A stretch of 64,000 bases of DNA from Thiohalomonadaceae bacterium (GTDB taxonomy: Bacteria > Pseudomonadota > Gammaproteobacteria > Thiohalomonadales > Thiohalomonadaceae). Shown here piece by piece: positions 8,025-42,598 of the stretch; the first letter of the stretch is position 1, and every line of letters begins with the position of its first letter. The stretch covers positions 747 through 64,746 of the forward strand of contig JBFEYJ010000001.1 in assembly GCA_041562215.1 (NCBI GenBank), written 5' to 3'. The translations under genes and the position numbers were made by a program. The notes beneath the pieces are model-generated. The model was not told the origin of the DNA. It saw nothing but the letters and a program-made list of their open reading frames with translations, and did no database searches.

Positions 8025-8027
8025 CCC

Positions 8028-9074: not shown

Positions 9075-9075
9075 A

Positions 9076-9921: not shown

Positions 9922-9986
9922 TCTTTCCCAACCCCATGAGGCAAAAGAGTGCCGTCCCTGGCCGTGAGATTTCATCATGAAATAAC

Positions 9987-12218
9987 TCAAAAATGTACGG
10001 AGAGACCCGCGGTATAGGTGCGTCCCTGGTTGACGACGATTGAGAGGTCCTCCTGGTCATATACCCCATCATCATTGCCATCGCCGTGACCACGCACTGT
10101 GTTGTAATAATTACGATCAAAGAGATTGTCGACGCGGGCAAAGAGCCCCCAATCGCCACTATCCGACGGACGGTCATAGTTGAGGAGCAGGTTGAAGGTG
10201 GTATAGCCGCCGATCTTCTCCTGGTTGATCTCATCCGCATAATAGGAAGACGTTGCATCCATCTCGAGACTCACCAGCCAGTTTGTCTTCGGCATCACAT
10301 GCGCCGTGACATTGAGATGGTGGTGCGGCACCCGCGGTACCTCATTGTCGGTGTTATCGTATAAGGTCGAGATATACTTCGGCGCACACGGCACAGGCGA
10401 GCTATAAGGGCTACAGGTCGAATCATAGGCCGGATTGTAAGTTTGCAGATAGAAGCTGTCGTACTTTGTGTACTCGGAGAGCATGTAGGTATAAGCCACA
10501 TCAAAGGAAAGCTTGCGCTGCGGATCCGTGCTCAGCGCCAACTCCAGACCACGGCTACGCATGTCACCGGTGTTGTCGTAAATGTTCCCACTTGCCGTGG
10601 TGTACTGGCCAGCGGTCGATTGAATGTGATCCTTGCGGTCAATCTGGAACAACGCCAGGTCAATATCCATCGATACACCAAACAGGCTGCCGCGACTCCG
10701 CATCCCCAGTTCGGTATTCAACGCATATTCCGGTTCCAGATCCGGATTGCCCTCAGTGCGCATTGTCGGGCTAGCGCTACCGACAAAGAGCTGTTCCACT
10801 GTCGGTGCGCGGAAACCGGTTGAAGCGTTGGCGTAGAAATCAAAATTAGTATTCAGCGCATAATTGCCGCCAAGGCGCCAGGAGGCGACCTTGAACTGTT
10901 TGCTGTCATCAAGAGTGCTGTCCAGGTTATCGGCATAGTCTAGATCGAGGACATCGTATCGACCGTTCAGGGTCATCACCAGCTTATCAGCAGGACGGAA
11001 CTTCACCTCGCCATAGATGGCACTCACCTTCTCATCCGTAGTGTTGTCATCATAAAGACCACCGACACTACAAGCTCCGTAGGCCTCAGAGCAGTCCAGG
11101 AAGGTGACCTCATTATCGTAACGGTTGTCCCGCAGGTCGGTTGCCAGCATCCAGGCCAGAGATTCTCCGCCGCTACGATATTCCGCCTTCACTCCTCGCT
11201 GCACCTGGTAATAATCGTTATCGTAAGTATAAGAAGAAGGATCAGCGTCAAGCGGTTTGGAGAGGAACCGGGTTTGGTCGGTAAACTGGTAGGTGTTGAC
11301 CATCAGATTGCTGTGATTGTCGATATCACTGGCGTAAGTCAGGAACAGCTTGTCAAGCACCACATCAAAACGGTTCGCATAATCATTATAGGCCGGGTCC
11401 TCGCTTCTCGGGTCCAGCTCGGCGGCAGTGACACCGAGCACACTGCCGTGACTGTTCTTTTCCCGATCGGAATGTTCGAAGCCGAAGGTCAGATCGCTGG
11501 CTTCATCCAGATAGTACTGCAGCTTGCCGTTAACATAATCAGCCTTGGAGGCCGAGTCGTCGTAATAGCCGTCAAGCTCACGACGCGATACCTGCACGTG
11601 GCCGTTGAAACTCTCCCCAGCGGTGCCCACTCGGGCCAGCCCTTTTTTGTAACCGAAACTGCCCGCCTCGGCACTGAGCCTGATTCCGGCATTGGCCGCA
11701 CCGCGCTTGGTGGTGATGATGACGGCGCCGGCCAGGGCATCATCGCCAAATAGATAGGAAGCACCGCCTTTGACCACCTTGATTGATTCGATGTTATCGA
11801 GATCGATATTCACCCGCCCGGTGCGCTCAAACACAGGCACCCCATCGATAACCACAGCAACTCCAGGGCGCTCCCCCATATAGACCTGGTTCTCGACACC
11901 GCGAATATGGATCTTGATCGAATCGCCACTCTGTACCTCGGTGGTAATCCCGGGCACACTCTGCAACAACTGTTGGATATTCTGTGTGTGCGCGACATCA
12001 ACCTCTTCAGCGCTGATCACACCGATATTCGAAGGCTCATCACGCTTATTCTCGAAACGGTCGTCGATGGTGGTCGATTCGACCTGAATAATTCCCAGTT
12101 CTTCAGCCACGGCAGTGCTGATTGGTGCCAAAAGGGATACCCCGGTCATCAAAACAGCGGTATGCAACCCAAAATGCGGAGCAAAAAAACTTTTCACACG
12201 ACTCTCCCAAATAACCAA
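9987..12218 (-). CDS. TonB-dependent outer-membrane receptor
   Basis: Plug domain (...IHIRGVENQ...VVIDGVPV...IESIKVVKGGASYLFGDDALAGAVIITTKRG), a long beta-barrel and the terminal ...TYTAGLSVHF. The probable true start is GTG 12197 (GGGAGAG upstream), giving the signal peptide VKSFFAPHFGLHTAVLMTGVSLLAPISTAVA. Confidence 0.9.
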   Translation of the reverse strand: MVIWESRVKSFFAPHFGLHTAVLMTGVSLLAPISTAVAEELGIIQVESTTIDDRFENKRDEPSNIGVISAEEVDVAHTQNIQQLLQSVPGITTEVQSGDSIKIHIRGVENQVYMGERPGVAVVIDGVPVFERTGRVNIDLDNIESIKVVKGGASYLFGDDALAGAVIITTKRGAANAGIRLSAEAGSFGYKKGLARVGTAGESFNGHVQVSRRELDGYYDDSASKADYVNGKLQYYLDEASDLTFGFEHSDREKNSHGSVLGVTAAELDPRSEDPAYNDYANRFDVVLDKLFLTYASDIDNHSNLMVNTYQFTDQTRFLSKPLDADPSSYTYDNDYYQVQRGVKAEYRSGGESLAWMLATDLRDNRYDNEVTFLDCSEAYGACSVGGLYDDNTTDEKVSAIYGEVKFRPADKLVMTLNGRYDVLDLDYADNLDSTLDDSKQFKVASWRLGGNYALNTNFDFYANASTGFRAPTVEQLFVGSASPTMRTEGNPDLEPEYALNTELGMRSRGSLFGVSMDIDLALFQIDRKDHIQSTAGQYTTASGNIYDNTGDMRSRGLELALSTDPQRKLSFDVAYTYMLSEYTKYDSFYLQTYNPAYDSTCSPYSSPVPCAPKYISTLYDNTDNEVPRVPHHHLNVTAHVMPKTNWLVSLEMDATSSYYADEINQEKIGGYTTFNLLLNYDRPSDSGDWGLFARVDNLFDRNYYNTVRGHGDGNDDGVYDQEDLSIVVNQGRTYTAGLSVHF

Positions 12219-12461: not shown

Positions 12462-12926
12462 ATGAAAGGAATGAATGGATTAAATGAAATTAACAGGCCC
12501 ACGCATATTCCCTCTGCGCTGAATAAATACGTCAGGCAGAACATCAAGTCTATGATGCAGGGTGAATTTAATCGGTATGTTGCCGGATTTCAGGATTTGT
12601 TGATGGTCAGTTCACCCCTGGCAGGGCGCTTCCAAAGACACATCGCACGCAAAGAAAATACAAGCTCTTCTCGCCCATTGACTGGAGACTACGCATTCCC
12701 TGCTGTGCATGGCGGCTGCGAAAGCAATCATCATCCACAGATAGTTATGAATAGCGTGGAGCAGATATTTTGTTACTTCACCGTACTCTGCTCCCGCCCC
12801 TCGATACCGGTGATGCCGAGTGTGCCGGGATTACCGCCAACTGGTTTTACCGTGAGCAGCCAGGTACCGCGCGAGGCGTTCCAGTACATTGGACCGTGTC
12901 CATCGAGCTGGAGCTGTGCGCTATAA
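12462..12926 (+). CDS. questionable small ORF (hypothetical)
   Basis: A strong AGGAGG SD lies 5 nt before ATG 12462, in the 550-bp AT-rich gap. However, the last ~150 nt run antisense through the 3' end of the subtilase gene, and no family is recognisable. Confidence 0.25.
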   Translation: MKGMNGLNEINRPTHIPSALNKYVRQNIKSMMQGEFNRYVAGFQDLLMVSSPLAGRFQRHIARKENTSSSRPLTGDYAFPAVHGGCESNHHPQIVMNSVEQIFCYFTVLCSRPSIPVMPSVPGLPPTGFTVSSQVPREAFQYIGPCPSSWSCAL

Positions 12927-14836
12927 CCCAAGGCGCTGGTGGCCTCAGCGATCAGTTTGTCCCCCCAGGGTTTGTACTCGGCACGGATAATATCGATGGT
13001 CAGATCATAACCATTGCAGTCCTGATCGATGCTGTCGTGCTTGATCTCGGTCGCTGCAGGATGGATTGCAGGGTCGGCATCGTTGCAGTCAATATCGGCG
13101 CTGTAGCCGTCAGCGTCGGCATCAGGCGGCGAAAGCGATTCGTCATCGACGAGCGTCAACACCGCCGACGTCGGCCAGCCCAGTGTTGCACCACCACTTC
13201 CCCCCAGGTGCAGGCTGAGTGTTTCGTCACCTTCGATCATCTCATCATCGAGCACGTTGACACTAAAACTTCTGCTCATCTCACCGTTGGCGAAATCAAG
13301 CGTGCCTATCACGGGTGTGTAATCAATCCCCTCCAGTGCCGTGCCACTGGCCGAATAGTAATCGACGCTCACAGCCCCGTAGTTGCCACCAAGACGGTTA
13401 ACAGTGATCTCTACCTTAAGTCCATTTTCGAGAACACTGTAATTGCCGGCGCTGAACTGCAAGTTGCCCGGTTGAGCCTGCTTCTGCAATTGATCGAGAG
13501 AGGCGACCAGATCGACCAGCCCCTGCCCCGTGTTGTTATCAGCGCCGATCGAATCGATATCGATGCTACTGCTGATCACCACCCCTTCGATCGCCGAGGC
13601 GGATGCTTGCGCCACAGCACTTTTAAGCAGGGCCATGCCGCCTGCAATTTGTGCAACGGAGAATGATGTCCCGCTGACATTGACATAGGCATCGGGGATC
13701 AGCCCACCGAAGGTAAGATCCGCGGTGCGGACATTGACCCCCGGTGCGACAACGGCCGGGAAGAGTGTCCCGTCACAGGCCGAAGGACCGCGACTGCTAA
13801 AATTTGCAACAGCACTTAATTCATCGACAGCGCCTACCGAAAGCACCTGGGCGTAATTTGCCGGGCTGAGGCTGCTGCCTGAGGCAGGCCCGGCGTTTCC
13901 AGCGGAGACCGCGACAGCGATGCCCGCTGCGCGCAGCACCTCGAGATCAGTCTGGAACTCGAACTCACAGACACCGACCGCATCGGAGAGACCCCAGGCA
14001 TTGCTCACCACGTCGGGGGCGTCATCCACATCAGGATTGCCGTCCGGATCGAGCAACCACTGAAAGGCGAGATGAATGTTGCTGTAGCTCGCGCTGCCGC
14101 TGTTGTCGAAAATCCTGGCAGCGATCCACTGCGCCCCAGGCGCAACCCCGATGGCGGTCCCGCCGTTGTCTCCACCGACGATGAGACCCATGGTCTGCGT
14201 ACCGTGACCGTTGGTGTCATGGGGCGAGGTATACTCACCACTGGGGTCAAACCAACTGTTGGCGCCACCACGCCACTTTGGCCCGATATCGGGGTGATGG
14301 GTATCGACCCCGGTGTCCAGCGACGCCACCACTACTCCCTGACCGGCAATCCCCTGTTGCCACAACAGCGGCGCTCCGAGCATCGAAAGATTCCACTCTG
14401 GCGTCACTGTACTGGCTCCCTCAGGTACCGGTACCGAGAGCGTGAGATCAAGAGAAATACTCTCTACCTCCGGGAACCGACGCAACTCCTCGACCAGCCG
14501 ACCGGGAACCTTTACTGCGAGACCATTAATCAACCACAGGCTTTTGATCTGACGAGCAGGCCTTCCCTTGAGAAAATTCAACAAAGGCTTTTCAGAGCGG
14601 GCGGACTCTGCCTGCAAGATTCGGATGATCCGAGCCCTTCTCTGAGATAGCCCGGACTCATTGAGTGGACGCAGATCGGGCCGCCCTGCAAAGCGAATAA
14701 TAAGCGCGATCTCCTTGTCGGGACTCAGTGTCTGCAAACGCTGCTCCAGTCCTGGAGTGATCCTTGCCGGCGCTGCAGCGTTGACTGCCCCGGCAGCCAA
14801 TACCGTCGCCAATATCGCGAACAGTGTGCGTGTCAT
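12773..14836 (-). CDS. secreted S8 subtilisin-like serine protease with Calx-beta-like and Cys-rich C-terminal modules
   Basis: AGGAGGG SD and signal peptide (...AAGAVNAAAP), followed by a propeptide-like N-terminus. Catalytic motifs are VVASLDTGVD (Asp), HGTQTMG (His) and SGTSFSVAQIAG (Ser). A Calx-beta-like block follows (VSVDYYSASGTALEGIDYTPVIGTLDFANGEMSRSFSVNVLDDEMIEGDETL), then the Cys-rich motif DADGYSADIDCNDADPAIHPAATEIKHDSIDQDCNG. Confidence 0.9.
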   Translation of the reverse strand: MTRTLFAILATVLAAGAVNAAAPARITPGLEQRLQTLSPDKEIALIIRFAGRPDLRPLNESGLSQRRARIIRILQAESARSEKPLLNFLKGRPARQIKSLWLINGLAVKVPGRLVEELRRFPEVESISLDLTLSVPVPEGASTVTPEWNLSMLGAPLLWQQGIAGQGVVVASLDTGVDTHHPDIGPKWRGGANSWFDPSGEYTSPHDTNGHGTQTMGLIVGGDNGGTAIGVAPGAQWIAARIFDNSGSASYSNIHLAFQWLLDPDGNPDVDDAPDVVSNAWGLSDAVGVCEFEFQTDLEVLRAAGIAVAVSAGNAGPASGSSLSPANYAQVLSVGAVDELSAVANFSSRGPSACDGTLFPAVVAPGVNVRTADLTFGGLIPDAYVNVSGTSFSVAQIAGGMALLKSAVAQASASAIEGVVISSSIDIDSIGADNNTGQGLVDLVASLDQLQKQAQPGNLQFSAGNYSVLENGLKVEITVNRLGGNYGAVSVDYYSASGTALEGIDYTPVIGTLDFANGEMSRSFSVNVLDDEMIEGDETLSLHLGGSGGATLGWPTSAVLTLVDDESLSPPDADADGYSADIDCNDADPAIHPAATEIKHDSIDQDCNGYDLTIDIIRAEYKPWGDKLIAEATSALGYSAQLQLDGHGPMYWNASRGTWLLTVKPVGGNPGTLGITGIEGREQSTVK

Positions 14837-15062
14837 GGTGCCACCCTCCTGTTTTCGCTCAACACCGACATCATCTCAACGTCTATGGGGAGAGATGATT
14901 CGTGACGAATGGAGTAGTTTCGTGCTTTCGACAATAGGTTCTGTGAATTTAGATAGCCTCTATATTCATGTATACGGCAGCAACATTTTCGCTACCTTCA
15001 CAAGCGCCGACGTTTATGCCGAAGCTCATGAACTTGGGAGTTTGCCGTGCCAATCCGTTTGA

Positions 15063-15569
15063 TTACAAAACACTCAGATTCTCCACCACGAAATCGCCGA
15101 TCACGACCGATACCTTGTCACCGGACTTGACGTGCCGGGCCGGATTACTGAAGAGAATGAAGTAGTTGCGATTGGCTTGCACATGCTTCGTCGTCTGGCG
15201 CAAGGCGCCCAGTTTGTTGGTGACCGGTACTTCCAATCGTGCATCGTCCTTCTCCACGATGAGGTAGGGCTTAATACGACGGTCAAGCAGTGGTGCGGCC
15301 TTTTCCGCATCAACCACCCGATAGCGAAAATCCAGCATATAACCGGTGGCGGTGGCTTGAATACCCAGTACTTCAACGCCCCACTTTTGCCGGAGGGCGC
15401 CAACATGTTCCGGATCGGAATCGACACCGACACCGCCGTCTTCTCCATACGCCGGTTCCTTCTCCATTGGCTCACTTGAAGTGTTCGTGCAGCCTGCCAG
15501 AAACAATGCCCCCAGCAGCACAGTTATGCACAAACCTTCCACTCTCTTTTCCTGCTTGGTCTTCATCAC
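15063..15569 (-). CDS. hypothetical lipoprotein
   Basis: Lipobox LFLAGC after a basic/hydrophobic leader. 168 aa, co-oriented and tightly spaced within the oxidase operon. No family recognised. Confidence 0.7.
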   Translation of the reverse strand: MMKTKQEKRVEGLCITVLLGALFLAGCTNTSSEPMEKEPAYGEDGGVGVDSDPEHVGALRQKWGVEVLGIQATATGYMLDFRYRVVDAEKAAPLLDRRIKPYLIVEKDDARLEVPVTNKLGALRQTTKHVQANRNYFILFSNPARHVKSGDKVSVVIGDFVVENLSVL

Positions 15570-15636
15570 CCTTTACCTCTCTCGCGAGGAACAGACTCTG
15601 CCGTGTCAACCGGTAGCACCCGCACCCGGCGCTGTA

Positions 15637-17517
15637 TTAAGGACCAACCGTTACCGTAACCGTGGCGACATTGGATAGCGCCCCCAGGTTATCCCGAATC
15701 GTATAGGTCACTGTCTCGACGCCAGTGAAACCACCGCCCGGGGTGAAGAAGATCGCATTACCCTTGGCATTCACTATGGCGGTGTTCAGCGGATTGGTGG
15801 GGCCATCGACAATGGCCAGCGAGCCCCAGTCAAGGGAACCGTCAGGATCCGAGTCATTGGCCATAACAGTAAGTTTAATGAAAGTGTCGACAGGTGTTGC
15901 GAAGGCATCATCCACAGCGACAGGCGGTTGATTTGCCGCCGGCGCGACCGTCAATGTTACTTGCACGGAATTGCCGCTCGCCGTGCCATCAAAGCTGTGG
16001 TAGGTGAAGCTGTCGGCACCGGCGAAGCCGGGATTAGGGATATAACGGAATGCCCCGCCCTTCCATAGGGTAACAGTACCGTTGGTTGTGGCGTTATCGA
16101 GAACAGCTGTAAGGGTGTCGCCATCCACATCGGTATCATTAACCAATACACCGGGGGGCGGCACGTTGAGAGTGGTATCGACACCACCCGCATAGCTGTC
16201 GGCAACCGTTAGCGGGATGTCGTTAACCGGCGTAACCGCCACACTCACGTTGGCGATATTGCTCGTCATCAGCCCGTCGCTAGCGGTATAGGAAAAGGTT
16301 GCCGTACCGTTGAAATCCGCTGGCGGGGTATAGTCGAAAGAGCCGTCCCCATTGAATATCAGCGACCCCTGATTGGCGACAGCCTGCAATGTTGCCGTCA
16401 AAGCGGTCCCGTTGTCATTTCCGAGCACACCTGGAGCGGTGATGGTGAGCGTTGACTCTTCCGCCGTAGTGAAAAGATCGTCCGCGGCGAGCGGGCGGTC
16501 TGCCCCGCCAGGCCCTACAGCCAGATAGCTGTAAATCCCCCCGGGACCTGCACCGGCATTGGTCAGGCTGAGACGATGGTCAAACAGCGGATAGTTTCCC
16601 TCGGCATTGGCCAGCAGGATCGCATCACGCGTCTTGCCGGCCGCCATCATCACCGAATACTGCTTGCGCGGATACGGGTAAGCACTGCCATCCTCGGCAA
16701 TGATCTGCAGAGGCTCCCCCAACACGCTCGGCACCAGCGTGCGCAACGACATGTTGACCATGCGAAGCAGGGTACGTGTGCCCGCCGCTCCTGCTGGAAG
16801 GGGCGTGGTGGCGGCACTGTACGGGGCGCCATTGACCAGAAAATATTTTGGCTTGTAATCGAAAGTGCTGGTCGGCCCTGTGCTGCCGTATGTGCCACCG
16901 GCAATCGCCGCATGCATTGCCGGATCGAGTTCGCTATAGAACAGCATCAGTTCCTGATCGTAGGTGATGCCGGGATAGGCCTCGCCCACTGCAGCATCCT
17001 TGCTGGCTGTGCCATAAAGTCCCATCTGTACCTGCACCGCCACATGGCTGCCGCTCTGGTAGGCATAGGTTCCAGGCTGGAAATCATTCCAGGTATAGAT
17101 CCCGGTGGCGCCCGGTGCGGTTTCGTGGGTAAAAGAGCGCACACGTGAACGCCCTTGGCCATCGGTAAAGAATACCGGTGTCATGGACGTCGACTGACCG
17201 CTAATCACCAGTGATGTTTCCACAGGCAGTTCATTCAGCAGGTTGATAGTGAGGCTTGTGTCGGCACTTGGCACGCTTATCGCCGGGCCTGGTAGTTGCA
17301 CAGGGTTGCCGCAACCATCACCAAGATTGGCATTGTCGTCTTCCGCATATCCCCACACAGCGATAATATTGCCATCGGGCATAGTCAGGTTCGTGCTCCC
17401 GGCACAGAGAAAGACCTCTGCCGCTTGCACCAATCCACCGGCCAGCCCCAGCCCCAACGCCAGTCCGGAGAGCAGGCTGGTCTTTCTCACGGTTCTGTTC
17501 ACAATCGTCTCCTCCAC
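15637..17517 (-). CDS. secreted cupredoxin/multicopper-oxidase-fold protein without copper ligands, C-terminal Ig/cadherin-like repeats
   Basis: Signal peptide present. The N-terminal ~330 aa parallel the neighbouring MCO (IAVWGYAE...LPGPAISV; YAYQSGSHVAVQVQMGLYG versus YYHSGSRPDLQIEMGLVG), but there is no HxH motif anywhere. The C-terminus has three ~95-aa repeats (PGVLGNDNG...FDYTPPADFNGTATFSYTASDG; PGVLVNDTDVDGDTL...FRYIPNPGFAGADSFTYHSFDG; VMANDSDPDGSL...FTPGGGFTGVETVTYTIRDN). Confidence 0.75.
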   Translation of the reverse strand: MEETIVNRTVRKTSLLSGLALGLGLAGGLVQAAEVFLCAGSTNLTMPDGNIIAVWGYAEDDNANLGDGCGNPVQLPGPAISVPSADTSLTINLLNELPVETSLVISGQSTSMTPVFFTDGQGRSRVRSFTHETAPGATGIYTWNDFQPGTYAYQSGSHVAVQVQMGLYGTASKDAAVGEAYPGITYDQELMLFYSELDPAMHAAIAGGTYGSTGPTSTFDYKPKYFLVNGAPYSAATTPLPAGAAGTRTLLRMVNMSLRTLVPSVLGEPLQIIAEDGSAYPYPRKQYSVMMAAGKTRDAILLANAEGNYPLFDHRLSLTNAGAGPGGIYSYLAVGPGGADRPLAADDLFTTAEESTLTITAPGVLGNDNGTALTATLQAVANQGSLIFNGDGSFDYTPPADFNGTATFSYTASDGLMTSNIANVSVAVTPVNDIPLTVADSYAGGVDTTLNVPPPGVLVNDTDVDGDTLTAVLDNATTNGTVTLWKGGAFRYIPNPGFAGADSFTYHSFDGTASGNSVQVTLTVAPAANQPPVAVDDAFATPVDTFIKLTVMANDSDPDGSLDWGSLAIVDGPTNPLNTAIVNAKGNAIFFTPGGGFTGVETVTYTIRDNLGALSNVATVTVTVGP

Positions 17518-17530
17518 AGTTATGGGGCCA

Positions 17531-18787
17531 TCACTCGATGGGTGTACCAGGCGGTTCGATAATCATCATGGTCATCATGCCGCCCGGAAATATGTCGTTA
17601 TTAACCAGTTCTCTCTCCGTGTGCGAGTGCCACATGAAGAACATGCCCCCATTTGCGTTCAGTCCGCCCTCGCCTGGAGGAAGAGTGCCGAAGGCACCGA
17701 GGAAGGGACTGCCGCTCCAGAAACCACCGAAAGTGAGGTCCTGATTCTCAGGCAGCACAACCGGGATAGGCTTGCCGTGGTCGGCCGGATCCTCGAACGG
17801 CGCCAACGGATCGCCGGGAGCATGGCCATAAAAGTCCCAGCCCATGCCTTTGCCCGTCCAGCTGAAAAGCGCATCGTAAGTGGCGCCGGGAACGACCTTA
17901 ACGGTGAAATCGGTGATGCCCAGGTCCGGGCCTGCTCCCGGACTGCTTTCCAGCAGATAACCGTCACGGGCAACCTGGAGGATGTGATTACCGTGGGTAT
18001 GGAAGGGATGGAGATCACGACTCGCCCCAATCAGCCGTGTCAGCACCCTATCGCCCGGGTGCATACGCGGCACGATGTTGTAAGGCTGATGTGGCAGCAA
18101 GGGGCTGTTGGCAGGCGCCAGTGTGTCAGGTCCGTTTCGTCCGTTGATGAACCACAGCACCGGGTGGTAGACGGTGGTGTCGATCTCCGCATACAGACCG
18201 CGATCGACCTGGTAATGGATCTCCGGATCCATCTCCGTCAGCAGGAACAGGTACTCATAATCAAAGGCTGTGTCAGCGTGATTGTATGCCTGTTTCGGTG
18301 CACCGCTCGGGCGGACGATCAGTGCACCGACCAGTCCCATCTCTATCTGCAGATCGGGCCGGGAACCACTGTGATAATAGAATGTGCCCGGACGGCCGGC
18401 AGTGAAGGTGTAGCTCACCGGATCGGCAGGTCCACTACTCTCCTGGGTCAACATCCCTGCCGTGCCGCCTGAAGCCGCCACATTAGGCAATCCCGGGAAA
18501 ACGATAGAGACCGGCTGCGGCAGGCTATTGCTGAGGTTGATCGTGACGGTGTCCCCCTGGTTAACGATAAGGGTTGGTCCCGGATACTGCATCTGACCGC
18601 CGTCCACGCCATAACCCCAGATCAACAGGCTGTCTCCATCAGGTGTATTGATGTAACCGGACGATGCGGTCAGATTGAAGGTCGTCCCGGTAATGCCGTC
18701 GATGGCGGCCTGGGCCTGCATGCTGCCAAGCAGCATGCCCAGCAACACCGCCGCCAGCCACCCTCTTGTACGTTGTTGAATTTTCAT
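17531..18787 (-). CDS. multicopper-oxidase-family protein, trinuclear-site His pairs kept but type-1 Cu site lost
   Basis: AGGAGA SD plus ATG 18787 (the ORF-track start 18823 is an upstream extension). Signal peptide ...GSMQAQAA. The first domain has degenerate motifs (VSIVFPG, YYHSGS). The last domain keeps HPFHTHGNH and FMWHSHTERE, i.e. two HxH pairs, but Ser replaces the canonical Cys of HCH and the following His is absent. Confidence 0.8.
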   Translation of the reverse strand: MKIQQRTRGWLAAVLLGMLLGSMQAQAAIDGITGTTFNLTASSGYINTPDGDSLLIWGYGVDGGQMQYPGPTLIVNQGDTVTINLSNSLPQPVSIVFPGLPNVAASGGTAGMLTQESSGPADPVSYTFTAGRPGTFYYHSGSRPDLQIEMGLVGALIVRPSGAPKQAYNHADTAFDYEYLFLLTEMDPEIHYQVDRGLYAEIDTTVYHPVLWFINGRNGPDTLAPANSPLLPHQPYNIVPRMHPGDRVLTRLIGASRDLHPFHTHGNHILQVARDGYLLESSPGAGPDLGITDFTVKVVPGATYDALFSWTGKGMGWDFYGHAPGDPLAPFEDPADHGKPIPVVLPENQDLTFGGFWSGSPFLGAFGTLPPGEGGLNANGGMFFMWHSHTERELVNNDIFPGGMMTMMIIEPPGTPIE

Positions 18788-18819
18788 GGATCGTCTCCTG
18801 AGCTCGAGTCGGGTGGCCG

Positions 18820-20049
18820 TCAATTGATACGGATCTCGGTCATCATGCCGCCAAAGTCCTCGGTACCATTGCTGAGGAAATTGAGATTCGTGGTGTAGAG
18901 AAAGTAGGTGCCGGGAGCAACCGATGCGGTATCAATGATCACATCCACAGATTCACCACCGCCCAGAGTGACCGAGTTAGTCTCATAGACGGTTTCGATC
19001 CCCTGCACCGGGCCCTCGCCGTCCGGGTCAGGGCCGCGTAAAAGCCGGGCTCCGGTACCGACCACACGCATCTTCAGTCCCATGCTCTGCAAGGTGTAGA
19101 AATTGGTCACATTCAGGTTGGAGATACGCAGCAGAATTTTCTCGCCACTTGTCGCCGTCACCAGAGAGCTGACGGCTTGTGAGACCTTTCCGCCATTCTC
19201 AACCGGTGGAGTGAGTGGTGCGGGATTTACTGTATCCGGATAGCCACGGCCGTTGAGCATGGCGTAGTTGTCTTTCATGTTGGCAAATGGCAGTGGCTGC
19301 ACATTCAGGCTCGCATCGTGGAACTCGGCATCGAACGAACCGATCTGCAGCGGATATTCGACATCGTAAAAGGTGGAACCATCACCGTCGTTGTATACAT
19401 ACTTGAAGCCACTCTGGTGAGTGAATCCATTAAGCTGTGCACCCGCCGGGAGATCGTTCTGAATCGGTTGCACGTAGAGGTTGCCGAGCATGCCCATTTG
19501 CATATGCTCGGTCGCCTCCACATGGCAGTGATACATATAGGTACCGGGTTCAATCAGGTTGTAATAGTAGGTCATGCTCGATCCCATATTGATGGAGACC
19601 GAGGCATCGGGCACCCCATCGAACACCGTCGAGGCATTGGGAAAACCATGGAAATGAACGGTATGCGGATCGAACAGATCCGGCCGCATCATCATCCCGA
19701 CATTGGTCAGGGTCAGGAAAAACTCCTGCCCCTGCTTCAACGTTATGGTCGGTGCCGGAAAGGCGGCGGCAAGGTTACCGGAGGTCATCGCCTGAGCTTC
19801 AGTAATACCGGTCAGGTCGGAAAATCCGAACATGTACTGCAGACGTCCGTCTGCCATGTTGATGAAGCCGTCACCGGCTCCCAGGTGCATGCACTTGAGC
19901 TGGTTCGGGTCATAGGGTCCATCCGGCACGGCATCGCCGTTGTTGTCTCCCGGGCATTGCACATAGACCGCTGCTTGCGCCGGCAAACCGATGCCCGCCA
20001 AAACCAGTGCTGTGGCAGCCGAGAGAGCCCTTAGCCTGAACTTGTTCAT
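18820..20049 (-). CDS. two-domain multicopper oxidase with complete type-1 Cu site in its N-terminal domain
   Basis: GGAGGAG SD and signal peptide ...GLPAQAA. Domain 1 carries HTVHFHG and YMYHCHVEATEHMQMGM, i.e. two HxH pairs plus His/Cys/His/Met type-1 ligands. Domain 2 carries no His ligands. 4-nt overlap with the downstream gene frame. Confidence 0.85.
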   Translation of the reverse strand: MNKFRLRALSAATALVLAGIGLPAQAAVYVQCPGDNNGDAVPDGPYDPNQLKCMHLGAGDGFINMADGRLQYMFGFSDLTGITEAQAMTSGNLAAAFPAPTITLKQGQEFFLTLTNVGMMMRPDLFDPHTVHFHGFPNASTVFDGVPDASVSINMGSSMTYYYNLIEPGTYMYHCHVEATEHMQMGMLGNLYVQPIQNDLPAGAQLNGFTHQSGFKYVYNDGDGSTFYDVEYPLQIGSFDAEFHDASLNVQPLPFANMKDNYAMLNGRGYPDTVNPAPLTPPVENGGKVSQAVSSLVTATSGEKILLRISNLNVTNFYTLQSMGLKMRVVGTGARLLRGPDPDGEGPVQGIETVYETNSVTLGGGESVDVIIDTASVAPGTYFLYTTNLNFLSNGTEDFGGMMTEIRIN

Positions 20050-20111
20050 GAGCGAACTCCTCCTCTTCAGACCCTGGCCGCCTGATGCGGCCAGGGCTTG
20101 GTTTTAATGGG

Positions 20112-23100
20112 TTACGGTTGCGCCACTTCGTCAGCGCCAATGTCCGTGCCCGCTCCGGCGGGGCGCGTTTGCGCATCATAATCAACAGCCAAGTCAGTGA
20201 AATCCGCCGGCACAGCCCCATCACCTGCATCGATCGCAGGCGAGCCTGCCGAGAGGTGGTAATCACCAGTGAGGCTCAGCGGTCCGAAGCTGACATCGAT
20301 GAAGTTGCCACCCTCGTCAAAGGCAGGAGCCGCAGCCAGTGAAGTGGTCAATTCAGGTATCAGAATGGTCTGGCCGCGATCACCATTGAAGTAGCTAGCG
20401 ACGAATGCCGGGTCGACCGGGATATTGCTGGGGTCGTAGCCGGTAACATCGGTCAGGATGCTGTTCAGCGGGTTCAGGCTGCCGGTAACACCGAGTACTG
20501 CCAGGTCATCATAAACAGCCGGGTCTCCCGCTCCTACATTGGGCACAAAACCGAAGATGGACTGTGCGGGATTGGCCTGATCCGGCTGAATCGCCCAGTA
20601 GAAGGAGCGGTTCTGCCAAATGATGTTATTCACCAGGGTCGGATTGGAGAACGCCCGATACTGATCCAGCGCCGTGGACGGATAGATGAGGCTACTCAGT
20701 GCGAGACTGTTGGCCCTGGAGACAATGCCTGCTGGTTGCGCAGTACTCTGGTTGGGGCTGCCGGGCAAGAAGGCCTCACCCGCGGTCGCCGTGCTGTCAT
20801 TGTGAGCGATGGTGTTGTTGATGATCTTCACCATCAGCGAGTCCTGCAGCGAGATACCGCCACCGGCAAGTCCGGCCACGTTATTGGTCATGATGTTGTT
20901 CATCACATTAACGCGATACCAGCGGTTGATACCGGCCGGGTGACGCGCTATATCCTCGCCATTAACCCGCTCGGTGCGGATGCCACCACCGTCGCCGGCA
21001 CCGGCCTGGTTGCCCTGGATCAGGTTCCCGTCGATGGTAACGTGGCCGGAACCGGGGCTCACCGCGCCTGCCAGACCGACCTGTCCGCCGATATAGATCC
21101 CGCCACCGGAGACCGACACACCCTGATTGAAGGACTGATTGAACAGGATCTTGTTGTCGGCGATGCGGCCAAGCCAGCTCAGACCGAGATGACCGATACC
21201 ACCACCATGACCCTGGCTGAAGTTGCCGCAGATGAAGTTGGAGGTCACGCTGTAGCCGCTGGCGCCGGTATAGAGTGCGATTCCGCCACCGGCGCCGGCG
21301 AGACTTCCGTTCTGCACCACCTGGTTATTGTGGATATTGATGCGTTTATTACCTGCGTCGGTGTAGATCTCGCCAAGGGTCGGATCCTGACTGACCAGAT
21401 CGGCATGGCCGATGCGAATACCGCCGCCGAACAGTCCCTGGTTGGCGACCAGGCGGTTATTGCTGATCTCCAGGTAACTTGCATAGCCGTTGACGAAGAT
21501 CGCTCCACCATGGTCTCCACCGGTAATGGTCACGCCATCAATGCGGGCATGATGCTCGCCGCCACGGAATTGCAGACGCTTACGCACGGTGGTACTACCC
21601 AGCACCGTAATGCCCGCTCCCTCACCATCGAACAGCAGCACAGGCTCGTTATCGGTGGGAACAAACCCGGCTCCCTGGCCGGGCAACAGTTCGAAGGCCC
21701 CGGCGGTGAGAAGCGAGGCCACCTTGTTACGCCACTGCTGCAGTTTCTCGGCAGGTGCCTTGCGAGCATTGAGCACCGTGGCATAAGGACCCCAGCCCTG
21801 CAGGCGCACCGGCTTGTACATCAGCACCATTTCGTTGTAGGTACCGGGTGCGAGCATGATGATGTCCTGTGGGCGGGCGATGTCGATGGCATCCTGGATC
21901 GGCGTTGCCGCGGGATCGGCACTGGGCAGGACCGGGATAACCGACATACGATTCGGCAACGGGCCGACCGTGACGGTCACACCGCCGGGTGCACTCTCAC
22001 CACCCGCCGTGGTGACCATCAACTGGCCGGTAGTGGCCCCGGCCGGAACGGTACCGGTGATAATACCGTCGCTCCAGCTCACACCACTCAGCGGCACACC
22101 ACCCACGGTCACCTCACCGGCAGCATTGCCGAAACCATAATGACGCGAGATCATCCGTGTGGTCGCCGCCGTGCCGTCATAGGCAGGATTAGGCACATCC
22201 ATATCACCCACCGCGACAATGGTCAGTGTCTGACCCGGCTCCACGTAAGGACCACTACCAGCCGGTCCGGATACGGTGTAAATGAGTGGTGTACCGGCAG
22301 GCTGCTCACAGTCCAGCGGGCTGCCCGGACCGGCAAAAGCGGCAATCGGCAGCACCGGCGTATCCAGGTAGGTAGTACCACCGGGCATGTATTGGAAGGT
22401 GTAGCAGAACTGGCTGTAACGCCGATCGTAATGCGGATCGACAATTATCTCAGGTACAGTGGGGTTGCTCACCGGATCGTAGGCCGGATTGGGGATCGGT
22501 CCCGCGTCGTTCATGCACGCGGAGATCATGTTGGGCGAGACGCCGGAGGCCATTGGCAGGTTCACAGAATAGCTCGATGGCAGCATGGCATTGAACTTTC
22601 CCCACTCATCGGAGTAGGTGCGCACGATTTCACGACCGGTCCAGTCACGGAACGATACCGGCAACCACGGCGGCGCAAACTTCTCACCGAAGGTCGGTGC
22701 ATTGGGATCGAACTCGTTGGCCAGATCGTTGAGGATCCCACCGACTACCATGGCTGCCTTGGGCGTTTCGGTAAAGAGGAAGAAATCGGCCGCCGAGTTC
22801 TGGCCCTGGGTCAGGTGCACCTTTTTTCGGTCGCACAACGGACGGTCTGTACCGGCATAAGGTGCAGCGATCAGATCGGCCGGTGCGATCCCCGGATAGG
22901 GGGTACCTGAAGCGTCGGTCTGCATCGTCAGGTACGGCGGCACAGTGTGCAGCGTGCCGACACAAACGTTAGGCAACAGCAACGGTGAGGGGGTGTAGGC
23001 GTCACCGAAATCGACGTTTTTATCCTCCTCCTTCAGCAGCTCGTAGCCTGGCGGTACCTTCACTTCAACAACATAGTCTCCCGGAACCAGCGGAGGATTG

Positions 23101-25334
23101 GCCGGGTCAGCCGGGTCGCCGGGACCGAAGGCATAGCCGCCGTCGAACACACCGGGACGGACCTGGTTAAAGTTGCGCAAGCCGTCGTAGCAATCGGTGG
23201 GAACACCGTCGACGCTGAAAACAGCACCCTGGCAACCGGTGGGCACGCTGTCGTCCCAACTGTCGGTATGGGTTACACGCAGTGCATCGCCGTTGTCGAA
23301 TACGCCATTGGCGTTGTGATCGGTGTCCTCGATACCGGGGAAATTGCCGAGCGGGTAGTTGTCCACGTCAGGTGCGGTAATAATGCCGTCACCGTCCTGA
23401 TCGAGGATATTACCGTCGATATCGGCCTGATAGAGGTTGACCTGTATCCGCGGGATACCGGGCTCCCACTCCTCACCAACCGCATAACGCGGGTCGTTCT
23501 CAGCGCGGGTAATGGCATAGAAAACGATACCGGAGATCCCGCCGTTCTCAGCGGCATCATAGGGTGCCTTGCCCCACTCGAAGCGGTTTGTCTGGCCAAG
23601 GAAACCCTGGAATGCCTGGGTCAATACCGGACCGGTCTCGGTACGAGAGAGATTGTCAGCGGTATTGGGGTTAATCAGTGGCTGTCCCAATTCGGCGGTC
23701 GTGCAGAATCCCGCCTCCACATCACCCTGGGTACAATTTTGCGGCTGTGGGGTGAGCACCTCACCGGCGGCAACCGGTCCACCATTGTCCACCGACACCG
23801 TCAGGCCGGTCGCCTTCAGGCGGGCGAAATCCACCTCAGCAACCAGCCAGTGGAAGAAGGGGAAGACCTCATCGAAGGGGGCTTCTCCATTGTTGTCCAC
23901 CGGCATCGCCTGATAGATACGACCATCACGGAAGCGCAGGTTAACAGCTGCCTGATCGGCGCCCAAGGGGGCGTCATCCAGCGTTGGGTCATTGCATTCG
24001 GCCGTCACGCAGTCGCGGAAACCGTTTTTGTTGCGATCGAAAAAGACAGTGTGCTCGCTGCGATGGAACCAGTTGAATACCGGCACATCACCCAACGCGA
24101 TGCTTCCCCCACCAACGGGGACCGTCACCGGCAGTGTCGAGATAATGACATCCAGGGGTTTGTCCCAGACAACCAGCTCATAATCGCCGGGGGGAACGTT
24201 ATTGATCTGGAAGCTACTGTCGGCATTACACGGCTGGGCATAGACCCCTTGTCCGGTACCGACAGGCGCATCGTTCAGGCCGACCCAACAGCCGGGGATC
24301 GGATGGCCGCTGTAAAAAGTAAAATCGGGCGGTCGTGAATTATGCAGATTAGTGACGGTGCCACTGATGCTGGAGCTGCCCGGCGGCTGCGCCGTGTCGC
24401 AATAGCCGACCGGATTGGTTGCGGCAGCATTGTAGCAGTCGAAAGTTTTAATGAAGCCGATGAAGACATGATGTCCCGGCGGTCCGAACTCGGTGAAAAA
24501 GCGTGGCTCGTTGGCCTTCACCCAAGCGTCAATCGTCTTACTGCCCTCGATGGTATGAGTCTGATGCCAGTCCTGCCCTGCCGGCGGGACCAGCTGAACA
24601 CCGTACTTGCCAGGCGACAGATTCTTGACCAGCGCAACACCGTCTACGTCGGTGAGGATTACCCCATCCCCCAATACATTGACCGTGCCGTCTGCGTTAT
24701 AGCTGGTTCCGAGCGGATTGCCGAAGGCATCCTGAAGAATTTGGCCACCGGCAGCACCATACTGTCCTGCGGCATCGAACAGCAACACGCTGAAACCCGG
24801 CAAACCGACCTCCTGCGGCAGGTCGGGAGCGTTATTGATCGGGGACTTATCCTCGAAGGCAAAGATCGATATTTGCGCTGTCGGTAACGGATGCGGCGCA
24901 ACCACAAGAGTCACATCCGCCGTCGCCGTAACCTGATCGAAACTCACCTCCCCACCAACATTGCTATAACCGGCAAAGGGCAGTACCGAAACGAAATAGC
25001 GTTTGTCCGTATCGACCCCCGTGATGGTCGCCGTGGTGCCCGCCGTCTCACCCTGCTGCAGCACCGGCGAGTGGCTGGTATGGAATTTCAGCGAGGGGGT
25101 ATCCAGAGTATGCACACCCGGAATAACCGCCGTGGTGTGATCTTCTTCCAGTAACCAGCGAAAACCGGAAACCGGGTTGGCGCTGCCATCCTGCACCTGT
25201 AGATTGATACTACCAGGCACCGCGTGTGCCGGTGACATGATCAGCAGGCAACAAACCAGAGTTGCTACCCATAAGGCGTGAATGGCCGACCACTCATCCG
25301 TGCTCCAAGACACCTGTCGACTGTTCATGTTCAT
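20112..25334 (-). CDS. giant secreted protein: beta-sandwich repeats + IPT/TIG-like module + long parallel beta-helix (PbH1) region
   Basis: GGGAGAG SD plus ATG 25334 (ORF-track start 25385) and signal peptide ...LLIMSPAHAVPG. An IPT/TIG-like block is present (GEVTVGGVPLSGVSWSDGIITGTVPAGATTGQLMVTTAGG). Many beta-helix turns follow: ISNNRLVANQGLFGGGIRIGH, IHNNQVVQNGSLAGAGGGIALY, VTSNFICGNFSQGHGGGIGH, IDGNLIQGNQAGAGDGGGIR, MNNIMTNNVAGLAGGGISL, IINNTIAHNDS. No CxxCH or HxH metal motifs were seen. Confidence 0.85.
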   Translation of the reverse strand: MNMNSRQVSWSTDEWSAIHALWVATLVCCLLIMSPAHAVPGSINLQVQDGSANPVSGFRWLLEEDHTTAVIPGVHTLDTPSLKFHTSHSPVLQQGETAGTTATITGVDTDKRYFVSVLPFAGYSNVGGEVSFDQVTATADVTLVVAPHPLPTAQISIFAFEDKSPINNAPDLPQEVGLPGFSVLLFDAAGQYGAAGGQILQDAFGNPLGTSYNADGTVNVLGDGVILTDVDGVALVKNLSPGKYGVQLVPPAGQDWHQTHTIEGSKTIDAWVKANEPRFFTEFGPPGHHVFIGFIKTFDCYNAAATNPVGYCDTAQPPGSSSISGTVTNLHNSRPPDFTFYSGHPIPGCWVGLNDAPVGTGQGVYAQPCNADSSFQINNVPPGDYELVVWDKPLDVIISTLPVTVPVGGGSIALGDVPVFNWFHRSEHTVFFDRNKNGFRDCVTAECNDPTLDDAPLGADQAAVNLRFRDGRIYQAMPVDNNGEAPFDEVFPFFHWLVAEVDFARLKATGLTVSVDNGGPVAAGEVLTPQPQNCTQGDVEAGFCTTAELGQPLINPNTADNLSRTETGPVLTQAFQGFLGQTNRFEWGKAPYDAAENGGISGIVFYAITRAENDPRYAVGEEWEPGIPRIQVNLYQADIDGNILDQDGDGIITAPDVDNYPLGNFPGIEDTDHNANGVFDNGDALRVTHTDSWDDSVPTGCQGAVFSVDGVPTDCYDGLRNFNQVRPGVFDGGYAFGPGDPADPANPPLVPGDYVVEVKVPPGYELLKEEDKNVDFGDAYTPSPLLLPNVCVGTLHTVPPYLTMQTDASGTPYPGIAPADLIAAPYAGTDRPLCDRKKVHLTQGQNSAADFFLFTETPKAAMVVGGILNDLANEFDPNAPTFGEKFAPPWLPVSFRDWTGREIVRTYSDEWGKFNAMLPSSYSVNLPMASGVSPNMISACMNDAGPIPNPAYDPVSNPTVPEIIVDPHYDRRYSQFCYTFQYMPGGTTYLDTPVLPIAAFAGPGSPLDCEQPAGTPLIYTVSGPAGSGPYVEPGQTLTIVAVGDMDVPNPAYDGTAATTRMISRHYGFGNAAGEVTVGGVPLSGVSWSDGIITGTVPAGATTGQLMVTTAGGESAPGGVTVTVGPLPNRMSVIPVLPSADPAATPIQDAIDIARPQDIIMLAPGTYNEMVLMYKPVRLQGWGPYATVLNARKAPAEKLQQWRNKVASLLTAGAFELLPGQGAGFVPTDNEPVLLFDGEGAGITVLGSTTVRKRLQFRGGEHHARIDGVTITGGDHGGAIFVNGYASYLEISNNRLVANQGLFGGGIRIGHADLVSQDPTLGEIYTDAGNKRINIHNNQVVQNGSLAGAGGGIALYTGASGYSVTSNFICGNFSQGHGGGIGHLGLSWLGRIADNKILFNQSFNQGVSVSGGGIYIGGQVGLAGAVSPGSGHVTIDGNLIQGNQAGAGDGGGIRTERVNGEDIARHPAGINRWYRVNVMNNIMTNNVAGLAGGGISLQDSLMVKIINNTIAHNDSTATAGEAFLPGSPNQSTAQPAGIVSRANSLALSSLIYPSTALDQYRAFSNPTLVNNIIWQNRSFYWAIQPDQANPAQSIFGFVPNVGAGDPAVYDDLAVLGVTGSLNPLNSILTDVTGYDPSNIPVDPAFVASYFNGDRGQTILIPELTTSLAAAPAFDEGGNFIDVSFGPLSLTGDYHLSAGSPAIDAGDGAVPADFTDLAVDYDAQTRPAGAGTDIGADEVAQP

Positions 25335-25642
25335 TTCGGCTCTCCCACTCACTGATTCAGTAGCACTGAACAGACGACGACCCATCGCCTGCCTTTACAC
25401 CGTGTCGCCGGAATACCGTTAACCTCAACAATACCGGTCGTCACGCATAACAACAGCCATCGAAAAACAGCCTAGTGATTAGCTAAAGTTTTACCGGTCG
25501 GTGCAGCCCCTATTTCCATGGGGGGACGACCCTATGAGCAAGGTAGTTGTGCACCTGACTGACAAGGACGAAAAGCAGCCTGCGGCAAATGCGGGATTCA
25601 TTGAAACTTCAGGAGATGACATTAGGAAGATAACGGAGAGTA

Positions 25643-26020
25643 TTACGAGGATTTCGCGGCAAGGTGATGTTGTACCAGTGAAAGGATATCGCCGGGAGAA
25701 GTCGTTTCCTTGCACAGAAAATCACTGGCGCCATTGGCAAATGCCGCCTCGCGATATTCAGGCAGATCATAACTGGTCAGAATAATGACATTGGTCGTCG
25801 CATCGGCATCCTTGAAAATGCGGGTCAGTGCGAGGCCGTTTTCACCTGGAATATTGATGTCCATCAACACCAGATCAGGACGCAATGACGCCGTCACAGC
25901 AATAGCTTCCTCGCCAGTACCGACATCAAGGATTTCTATTGCGGGAAAATGCTCTTGCAACAATAAGCGCAGGGTTGTGCGAAAACCAAGATTGTCTTCC
26001 ACAAGCAGTGTGCGAAACAT
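25643..26020 (-). CDS. single-domain CheY-like response regulator
   Basis: GGAGG SD plus ATG 26020 (MFRTLLVEDN...). Receiver motifs are DLVLMDINIPGENG, IILTS and LCKE. There is no output domain. Confidence 0.85.
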   Translation of the reverse strand: MFRTLLVEDNLGFRTTLRLLLQEHFPAIEILDVGTGEEAIAVTASLRPDLVLMDINIPGENGLALTRIFKDADATTNVIILTSYDLPEYREAAFANGASDFLCKETTSPGDILSLVQHHLAAKSS

Positions 26021-31768: not shown

Positions 31769-31770
31769 TG

Positions 31771-34523: not shown

Positions 34524-34530
34524 GGCGGTT

Positions 34531-36330: not shown

Positions 36331-36353
36331 GTTTTTTGCCGTGCCTGTATCGG

Positions 36354-42542: not shown

Positions 42543-42598
42543 GACAGTGACCGACATGAAATCGTTTCGCTGCCTCTTCTGGTTTCTCGCGGCTACAC

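Follow-up and report, generated by a model that had tools for sequence, protein, structure and literature searches.

A Widespread Operon Predicted to Encode a Heteromeric Multicopper Oxidase Mounted on a Giant Beta-Helix Protein

The subject of this report is a six-gene operon found in a stretch of 64,000 nucleotides from a Thiohalomonadaceae bacterium (GenBank assembly GCA_041562215.1, contig JBFEYJ010000001.1, positions 747 to 64,746), hereafter called the window. The operon (positions 12773-25334) encodes a giant protein of 1,740 residues, three cupredoxin-fold proteins that are denoted here as McoA, McoB, and McoC, a small lipoprotein, and a subtilase of the S8 family. These proteins are proposed to form a heteromeric multicopper oxidase (MCO) machine that is built on the giant and exported by a type II secretion system (T2SS), with an extracellular substrate guessed to be Fe(II) or Mn(II) near minerals. 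We assign a probability of about 0.6 to this proposal. The architecture is well supported; the substrate we infer.

Copper Ligands of McoA, McoB, and McoC

Profile searches gave Cu-oxidase matches for all three Mco proteins: Cu-oxidase_3, Cu-oxidase_2, and Cu-oxidase for McoA; Cu-oxidase_3 (above the cut-off) and Cu-oxidase_2 (just below it) for McoB; and Cu-oxidase and Cu-oxidase_3 for McoC. Each chain contains two cupredoxin domains, as is found in the type-C two-domain MCOs, and two enzymes of this type, 3g5w and 2zwn, are the best matches in the PDB for both McoA and McoB, with 3gdc also ranking high for McoA. Against 3g5w, McoA aligns to the motifs of domain 1 (HTVHFHG and YHCHVEATEHMQMGM) and McoB to those of domain 2 (HPFHTHG and WHSH). 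The type-C two-domain MCOs are homotrimers in which domain 1 of each chain meets domain 2 of its neighbor at a trinuclear center, and three such centers are present in the trimer.

The copper ligands were counted in 58-71 orthologues of each Mco protein, drawn from the loci described in the next section. In domain 1 of McoA, the ligands of the type 1 (T1) copper (H129, C175, H182, and M187) and four histidines of the trinuclear center (H132, H134, H174, and H176) are each present in 70-71 of 71 orthologues, and no MCO copper-ligand motif was found in the alignment of domain 2. In McoB it is domain 2 that carries ligands, with HxH (H275 and H277) and H-S-H (H399 and H401) present in 68-69 of the 69 orthologues and H272 conserved to the same extent, and the alignment of domain 1 contains no MCO copper-ligand motif. 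The T1 cysteine is replaced by Ser400 in 68 of these 69 proteins (the other has a gap at this position), which leaves McoB without a T1 site. The orthologue alignment of McoC lacks an MCO copper-ligand set in either cupredoxin domain. A type-C enzyme has eight trinuclear-center histidines per chain, whereas McoA has four in domain 1, McoB has four in domain 2, and McoC has none; the complete set exists only across McoA and McoB. Since neither protein holds the full set of ligands, neither McoA nor McoB would have a trinuclear center by itself, and together they hold exactly one.

An earlier reading of the window, termed here the original prediction, had listed three cupredoxin-fold proteins. 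The fold assignments are upheld by the Cu-oxidase matches, but the three proteins do not stand as three enzymes, given the complementary ligands of McoA and McoB and their absence from McoC. From their sequences, McoA, McoB, and McoC look like diverged paralogues of a type-C MCO that would contribute complementary parts of a single oxidase. The most economical reading, by analogy with the homotrimers, is a pseudo-six-domain A-B-C ring that would contain one T1 site and one trinuclear center. A full-text literature search for a precedent for a split MCO returned only the proteolytic alpha-alpha-alpha' form of the two-domain MCO from Nitrosopumilus (PMC11761707). This "heterotrimer" was rejected as a precedent because it is the product of one gene.

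Additional histidines outside of the MCO motifs are nearly invariant. These are H244 of McoA (71 of 71 orthologues) and H203 and H349 of McoB (67 of 69 for each), and they could belong to an additional site for a metal or a substrate.

Conservation of the Operon and Fusions of the Giant

A pattern scan that covered one genome for each GTDB species found relatives of the giant in 348 species. The best 79 loci were fetched, and their gene content was read by tblastn with the window proteins. Among the 58 loci in which the sequence continues for at least 9 kb on the downstream side of the giant, the exact order giant-McoA-McoB-McoC-small protein-S8 was found in 51, from about ten phyla. In the other seven loci the last two genes are swapped (one locus), the S8 gene is missing (four loci), or the small protein and S8 genes are both missing (two loci). 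The syntenic loci come from Gamma-, Beta-, Alpha-, and Deltaproteobacteria, Nitrospirota, Acidobacteriota, Planctomycetota, Hydrogenedentes, and Myxococcota. Conservation of this kind is far above chance. The operon is widespread in bacteria from groundwater, sediment, and soil and in symbionts, and the cultured carriers include members of the genera Cupriavidus, Paraburkholderia, Ralstonia, Amphritea, and Methylocaldum.

The giant family spans Gamma- and Betaproteobacteria, Thermodesulfobacteriota, Ca. Abyssubacteria, and others. The closest relatives of the window are metagenome-assembled genomes of Thiohalomonadaceae (84% identity), and across phyla the giant remains 50-55% identical over about 1,700 residues, which is unusually high for an adhesin. 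The central 711 residues alone retrieved 477 representatives (50% clusters) at E <= 1e-30.

In some lineages the giant is fused to an Mco protein. Seven relatives of the giant (2,284-2,456 residues), of metagenomic origin, run on into McoA. The linker contains two or three tandem-95 repeats in six of the seven, and no repeat match was found in the remaining protein (P0101). The McoA portions of these chains are 55-66% identical to McoA of the window, and at loci L036, L041, and L046 the fusion replaces the separate McoA gene. A second type of fusion was found when plasmids and chromids were searched by tblastn with McoA, which returned copies of 39-43% identity in Cupriavidus metallidurans CH34, Paraburkholderia, and Ralstonia. 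The order on the CH34 chromid is LuxR regulator, kinase, T2SS genes, McoA, McoB, a McoC::giant protein of 2,698 residues, and the small protein. Identities to the window proteins are 41% for McoA, 38% for McoB, 34% for the giant portion, and 41% for the small protein. The McoC::giant family comprises 2,056 proteins at E <= 1e-20, and its carriers include Burkholderia, Ralstonia solanacearum, Paraburkholderia, Cupriavidus, Collimonas, Pandoraea, Gallionellaceae, and Granulicella. The Gallionellaceae locus has a layout like that of CH34, together with genes for a secretin, pseudopilins, a LuxR regulator, and SCO1.

There are thus two independent types of fusion, one that joins the C-terminus of McoC to the N-terminus of the giant and one that joins the C-terminus of the giant to the N-terminus of McoA. 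This is strong evidence that the giant and the Mco proteins would work in physical contact. The original prediction had described the six co-directional genes for exported proteins as one unit, in which the giant and the MCO genes should be conserved together. The reading frames, their spacing, the N-terminal signals, and the synteny all support such a unit, and the co-conservation extends to fusion. The S8 gene is absent from the fused Burkholderiales-type loci that were examined (CH34 and Gallionellaceae), and the subtilase is therefore regarded as an add-on of the variant found in the window. A gene for a LolA-like (TP_0789-like) protein follows the small protein in the fused variant (23797..24576 in L080 and 17487..18323 in L081) and has no counterpart in the window.

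The giant is composed of a signal peptide, about 1,040 residues of CnaB/SdrD-B-like beta-sandwich modules, an IPT/TIG domain (residues ~1040-1125), and a right-handed beta-helix (residues 1125-1740) that ends in a choice-of-anchor-Q motif. Asp-rich loops, which are putative Ca2+ sites, and about eight conserved cysteines are found in the beta-sandwich region. The profile matches to SdrD_B, SpaA, CarboxypepD_reg, and the fn3_3 domain of PL4 are below threshold, as are those to prealbumin/SdrD-B-type beta-sandwiches; choice-of-anchor Q was matched in addition. The profile searches agree with the domains assigned in the original prediction to the giant, the three cupredoxin-fold proteins, and the S8 protease with its Calx-beta and Cys-rich modules.

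The AlphaFold2 (AF2) model of residues 1-1130 is all-beta and of moderate confidence (pLDDT 67), and its fold matches are generic stalks of the CnaB/SdrD-B type (TIE proteins, SdrD, and pilins). The function of this portion could not be read from its fold. Residues ~600-1010 hold the most conserved sequence of the protein, with about eight conserved cysteines and invariant segments (SQFCYTFQY, for example); this region is poorly modeled by AF2 and has no recognizable relative. The model of residues 1125-1740 is a confident right-handed beta-helix (pLDDT 87, pTM 0.90). The models are compatible with a scaffold, and the central region or the helix could also have a binding or catalytic role.

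The helix had been likened in the original prediction to PbH1 proteins that handle metal centers. This resemblance proved not to be specific, and a role in the assembly of metal centers, as for NosD, was rejected. The NosD profile TIGR04247 matches with 23 bits, against a cut-off of 300, and the match is limited to a cap motif (residues 1163-1206, 42 profile positions); NosD is not among the top 50 Foldseek matches. The two proteins share a right-handed beta-helix and a similar N-terminal cap motif, but the window contains no NosF, NosY, or NosL partner.

Operon Layout and Neighboring Genes

The coordinates of the operon genes and their neighbors are collected in Table 1. Proceeding from the giant to the S8 gene, the intergenic distances are 62, -4 (an overlap), 13, 67, and 226 nt, and all six genes are read from the minus strand. 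The open reading frame of the giant can be extended upstream to position 25385, where an upstream ATG would give a protein of 1,757 residues. The start was taken at 25334 because the identical database protein (P0001) has 1,740 residues. For McoB, the ATG at 18787, which is 12 codons inside of the TTG start, is the more likely start. The promoter/terminator scan and the Rfam search found no minus-strand terminator-like site between the six genes. The sole minus-strand terminator-like match within the operon (15346..15332) lies within the coding sequence of the small protein. The only intergenic element found was a GC-rich hairpin between the giant and McoA. This hairpin may be an element for mRNA processing or stability, and it might set the relative amounts of the mRNA for the giant and for the oxidase.

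Table 1. Features of the operon and of the neighboring genes in the window (strand as in the window)
Feature	Position	Strand	Description
S8 subtilase	12773..14836	minus	687 aa; last gene of operon
Small lipoprotein	15063..15569	minus	168 aa; LAGC lipobox
McoC	15637..17517	minus	626 aa; two cupredoxin domains and three tandem-95/Big_9 repeats
McoB	17531..18823	minus	430 aa from TTG start; two-domain MCO-like
McoA	18820..20049	minus	409 aa; two-domain MCO-like
GC-rich hairpin	20072..20096		perfect 10-bp pattern match in the 62-nt gap between giant stop and McoA start
Giant	20112..25334	minus	1,740 aa; first gene of operon
Stand-alone receiver (CheY-like)	25643..26056	minus	137 aa; Response_reg 2.8e-20
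NarL/LuxR-type response regulator	26400..27059	plus	adjoins giant in 33/79 loci
Histidine kinase	27012..29069	minus	three PAS, HisKA_3, and HATPase domains; adjoins in 25/79 loci
T2SS gspM, gspL	29062..30820	minus	
SCO1/SenC-type copper chaperone	30977..31768	plus	PF02630 9e-24; adjoins in 34/79 loci
MofC-like protein	31699..33432	plus	signal peptide, one CXXCH (C98); adjoins in 31/79 loci
T2SS gspB, A, D, weak C-like, K, J, I, H, G, F, E	33582..45491	minus	

The six-gene extent given in the original prediction stands, but a seventh co-directional gene had been overlooked. This gene, for a CheY-like receiver, lies 257 nt upstream of the longest reading frame of the giant and 308 nt upstream of the start at 25334, and it is kept in the nine closest loci. 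The plus-strand open reading frames at 25501..26276 are antisense shadows of the receiver gene.

The subtilase has an N-terminal propeptide and matches Peptidase_S8 (8e-43), Calx-beta (9e-19), and a MopE-type Cys-rich motif (3e-9). The catalytic triad (D174, H211, and S391) and the oxyanion residue N314 are kept in 48-50 of 50 orthologues, and by its sequence the enzyme is predicted to be active-site-competent. The small protein was found in 62 of the 79 loci and in both variants, including that of CH34. No Pfam, NCBIfam, or PDB relative was found for its C-terminal domain of ~110 residues, even with a profile of 15 sequences.

The window contains a complete T2SS cluster, gspA-M. In 21 of the 79 loci, T2SS genes are found no more than 10 kb from the giant, and they are also present in CH34 and at the Gallionellaceae locus. 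The genes for SCO1 and for the MofC-like protein are on the opposite strand inside of this cluster, between gspL and gspB, and this placement suggests that the T2SS is dedicated to the copper oxidase. The CxxxC motif of SCO1 is C146-T-T-I-C150. The MofC-like protein fits the published description of that type (PMC5566968), and it contains a weak periplasmic-binding-protein-like region. Export of the operon products, as in the original prediction, is predicted from N-termini that read as Sec signal peptides, with a T2SS and a two-component system alongside. A literature search on the secretome and the T2SS returned nothing relevant.

Between the subtilase gene and exbB/exbD is a block of four minus-strand genes (7338..12218) for a TonB-dependent receptor (YncD/PqqU-like), a protein of 304 residues that belongs to no family, a membrane polyferredoxin of the NapH/MauN type, and a DsbD_2 protein. 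This block is absent from every related locus, including that of the closest relative (L001), and was rejected as a component of the system. In L001, exbB-exbD comes immediately after the subtilase gene, and the block thus represents an insertion or deletion.

The window is unusually rich in PAS signaling proteins, and these flank the secretion and oxidase region (1372..3597 and 45835..51154). Among them are a hybrid kinase that has a receiver domain, a multi-PAS hybrid kinase of 1,403 residues, and an HD-domain response regulator. From about 54000 to 64000, the GC content is only about 0.42, down from about 0.55. This stretch encodes a Ser/Thr kinase of 1,329 residues with an AAA_16 (STAND-like) domain, a protein of the TOMM bacteriocin-precursor family (TIGR03795), a fused leader-binding/YcaO cyclodehydratase, and a thiazolinyl imide reductase. 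It is probably a horizontally acquired gene cluster for a ribosomally synthesized and post-translationally modified peptide (RiPP) of the thiazole/oxazole kind.

Proposed Function and Comparison with Known Systems

A cluster of this kind has been noticed in Sideroxydans lithotrophicus ES-1. He et al. flagged Slit_1812-1818 as an uncharacterized three-MCO ("three-cupredoxin") cluster that contains two proteins with MCO motifs, a large protein without such motifs, small proteins, SCO1, and a cytochrome; the three-cupredoxin proteins were predicted to be extracellular, and little could be inferred about their function (PMC5566968). Keffer et al. found that the products of Slit_1812-1818 had a significantly higher abundance on magnetite than on Fe(II)-citrate. 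They described Slit_1817 and Slit_1818 as having MCO motifs and the much larger Slit_1816 as having none, with adhesin- and polysaccharide-lyase-like domains, and named Paraburkholderia and Ralstonia as having similar clusters (PMC12016527). The ES-1 proteins were still cited as uncharacterized in 2026 (PMC13488337). When matched by description, all components of the ES-1 cluster are present in the window, with the adhesin/lyase-like domains on a separate gene. From the published description and the Paraburkholderia and Ralstonia clusters named there, we infer that the ES-1 cluster is the fused variant seen in CH34 and Gallionellaceae. The higher abundance on magnetite in an iron oxidizer is the only functional clue for these proteins.

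In the proposed mechanism, all parts would reach the periplasm by the Sec pathway, and there the SCO1 chaperone and the MofC-like cytochrome would assist in the loading of copper. McoA, McoB, and McoC would form an A-B-C ring with a single catalytic center for the reduction of O2 to water. Domain 1 of McoA would supply the T1 copper, at which the substrate is oxidized, and four of the eight trinuclear histidines; domain 2 of McoB would supply the other four, and McoC would supply none. The ring would be physically joined to the giant, a contact suggested by the fusions, and the folded complex would exit through the neighboring T2SS. The S8 subtilase would trim or activate one component, and the small protein, predicted to be lipidated in this genome, would aid in assembly or in retention at the cell surface. 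Expression would be set by the adjoining PAS kinase, the NarL-type regulator, and the CheY-like receiver. Once outside of the cell, the giant would position the oxidase on a solid mineral. The scaffold, the maturation protease, and the analogy with Mn(II)-oxidizing MCO loci put forward in the original prediction are likewise hypothetical.

The substrate is the least certain part of the proposal. The leading guess is a metal in reduced form, Fe(II) or Mn(II), on or close to mineral surfaces outside of the cell, and a metal or mineral substrate is favored because of the magnetite proteomics. Since the electrons would go to O2 outside of the cell, the role of the system would be transformation, detoxification, mineral attack, or nutrient release rather than respiration.

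A heteromeric secreted oxidase could instead act on organic polymers, with the beta-helix binding or cleaving an acidic polysaccharide or the matrix of the cell itself and the MCO acting like a laccase in the oxidation or cross-linking of phenolic, humic, or matrix components. The polymer role is kept alive by the fold of the helix and by the many heterotrophic carriers. In Foldseek, the helix is matched best by polysaccharide lyases and glycoside hydrolases (GH136 LnbX, PL6 chondroitinase B, Pel9A, and alginate lyases), and the giant has the sub-threshold CarboxypepD_reg and PL4 fn3_3 matches noted above. The system is also very frequent among the Burkholderiales that live in soil or with plants, Ralstonia solanacearum among them. 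The fold matches, however, are weak, with E values of 1e-5 to 1e-3 and a TM score of about 0.4, and they are of a kind generic to right-handed beta-helices; no CAZy-family catalytic motif was identified, and many of the carriers are obligate or facultative chemolithoautotrophs that oxidize sulfur or iron. We consider a polymer substrate to be unlikely.

It is quite unlikely that the complex serves copper homeostasis, either by detoxifying Cu(I) as a cuprous oxidase outside of the cell or by capturing copper and making it available. Met-rich segments are found within McoA and McoB, the adjoining SCO1 has an N-terminal stretch rich in His and Met, and the system is carried on the chromid of CH34, a model organism for metal resistance. 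The CopA/PcoA copper-resistance profile TIGR01480 is the best or second-best NCBIfam match of the cupredoxin domains, but with 28-55 bits it is far below the cut-off of 479. There is no gene nearby for CopB/PcoB, CusF, a P-type ATPase, CueR, or a CopRS-type regulator. SCO1 is explained equally well as the assembly factor of the enzyme itself, and a carrier of 1,740 residues with a dedicated T2SS would be hard to justify for the detoxification of Cu(I).

It is highly improbable that the giant is an ordinary adhesin or biofilm-matrix protein beside unrelated oxidase genes, as its N-terminal 1,100 residues, which fold like Gram-positive adhesin and pilin stalks, and the tandem-95/cadherin-like repeats typical of adhesins might suggest, or that the Mco proteins are separate homotrimers, given the independent giant-McoA and McoC-giant fusions, the synteny of about 90% and the sequence identity of the giant across phyla, unlike that of fast-evolving adhesins, and the lack of a full ligand set for a homotrimeric trinuclear center in McoA or McoB and of any ligand in McoC.

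Several observations weigh against the secreted metal oxidase that we favor. The A-B-C ring and its 1:1:1 stoichiometry are postulated from ligand bookkeeping and from the known homotrimers. The likeness of the beta-helix to carbohydrate-active enzymes, albeit weak, is at least as great as that to any other protein. T2SS genes adjoin the giant in only about a quarter of the loci, and the lipobox cysteine is present in only 6 of 15 aligned orthologues of the small protein. The link to ES-1 was drawn from the published description and the statement on Paraburkholderia and Ralstonia and not from an alignment, and the ES-1 proteins are absent among the 120 matches listed in the McoC::giant-family searches. 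The magnetite result is correlative and comes from a fused variant that lacks the S8 subtilase. Heterotrophic carriers such as Amphritea, Massilia, and Azospirillum have no known metal oxidation. Strict anaerobes (Dissulfuribacter and Desulfobacteraceae) are also among the carriers, which is awkward for an O2-dependent oxidase, although there is a precedent in OmpB of Geobacter.

A bolder proposal is that this is the first natural MCO whose single center is made from different gene products, in an A-B-C heterotrimer of two-domain paralogues, mounted on a giant, served by its own T2SS, and used as a general tool for the oxidation of solid-phase reduced metals. We regard this as possible, though doubtful. 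If true, the targets of such a tool would be reduced metals in the solid phase or bound to surfaces outside of the cell, such as the Fe(II) of magnetite, and its carriers would range from iron and sulfur oxidizers to Ralstonia, Burkholderia, and Cupriavidus, with about 350 GTDB species representatives in addition to the large fused family. The locus is of interest for extracellular metal oxidation and for the enzymology of MCOs, which rank among the most thoroughly studied metalloenzymes. Viewed as one secreted complex, the three Mco proteins, the giant, the small protein, and SCO1/MofC would provide a concrete and testable way into the question of how solid electron donors or other extracellular substrates are attacked by bacteria, and the model names four proteins that would need to be co-expressed for activity.

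The original prediction had found no match to a characterized system. It is still the case that no characterized locus matches, but the combination is not without a predecessor, since an operon of this kind has been noticed in iron-oxidizing bacteria and the fused version was flagged in ES-1 (PMC5566968). A literature search on the CH34 locus tags found nothing. The clusters of ES-1, CH34, and Gallionellaceae resemble the window in having two proteins with MCO motifs and a third cupredoxin protein without copper ligands. Also shared are the beta-sandwich and beta-helix domains ("adhesin/polysaccharide-lyase-like"), the conserved small protein, SCO1, and a cytochrome of the MofC-like type, and genes for a LuxR-type regulator and a T2SS are located nearby. 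In the fused clusters, McoC and the giant are one chain of ~2,700 residues that follows McoA and McoB, the S8 gene is absent, and a LolA-like gene is present, whereas in the window the giant is a separate first gene and the subtilase closes the operon.

The type-C MCOs (the blue copper oxidase of Nitrosomonas europaea, 3g5w; the metagenomic mgLAC, 2zwn; and the Arthrobacter enzyme, 3gdc) share with the window proteins a T1 site in domain 1, the HxxHxH and HCHx5Hx4M motifs of domain 1, and the two HxH motifs of domain 2. They differ in that the ligand sets of the window are found on different gene products, the third paralogue has no ligands, and at most one center could be formed per A-B-C set. 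The Mco proteins of the window are also larger, and McoC contains tandem-95 repeats in addition.

OmpB of Geobacter, MofABC of Leptothrix, and IoxA-F of Iodidimonas resemble the proposed system in having a secreted or outer-surface MCO. He et al. reported that the three-MCO proteins of ES-1 are not homologous to the OmpB, MofA, and Iox metal oxidoreductases. The OmpB cluster contains genes for an SCO1-type chaperone and a MofC-like cytochrome, and OmpB is secreted by an atypical T2SS; MofC of MofABC is the founding cytochrome of the MofC-like type (PMC5566968). Iox is a multisubunit enzyme (IoxA and IoxC) with three SCO1 homologues in its cluster and flanking gsp genes (PMC9415286). The cytochrome-MCO operon of Thioclava (PMC13488337) is a different system. 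By description, all four copper-binding regions of OmpB, MofA, and IoxA are in one chain, and these systems have neither a giant nor a subtilase.

Architectural analogies to the proposed ring are Bacillus Mnx (MnxG with MnxE/F) and six-domain MCOs such as ceruloplasmin, which have six cupredoxin domains, a pseudo-threefold axis, and a single trinuclear center. Mnx is a multiprotein Mn(II) oxidase in which MnxE and MnxF are small subunits that are not cupredoxins. In these enzymes, unlike in the window, the six domains are found in one polypeptide. If the proposed ring is correct, then a split, heteromeric two-domain MCO would bridge the homotrimeric two-domain enzymes and the single-chain six-domain enzymes such as ceruloplasmin, and would capture the evolution toward one active site per ring while it is in progress.

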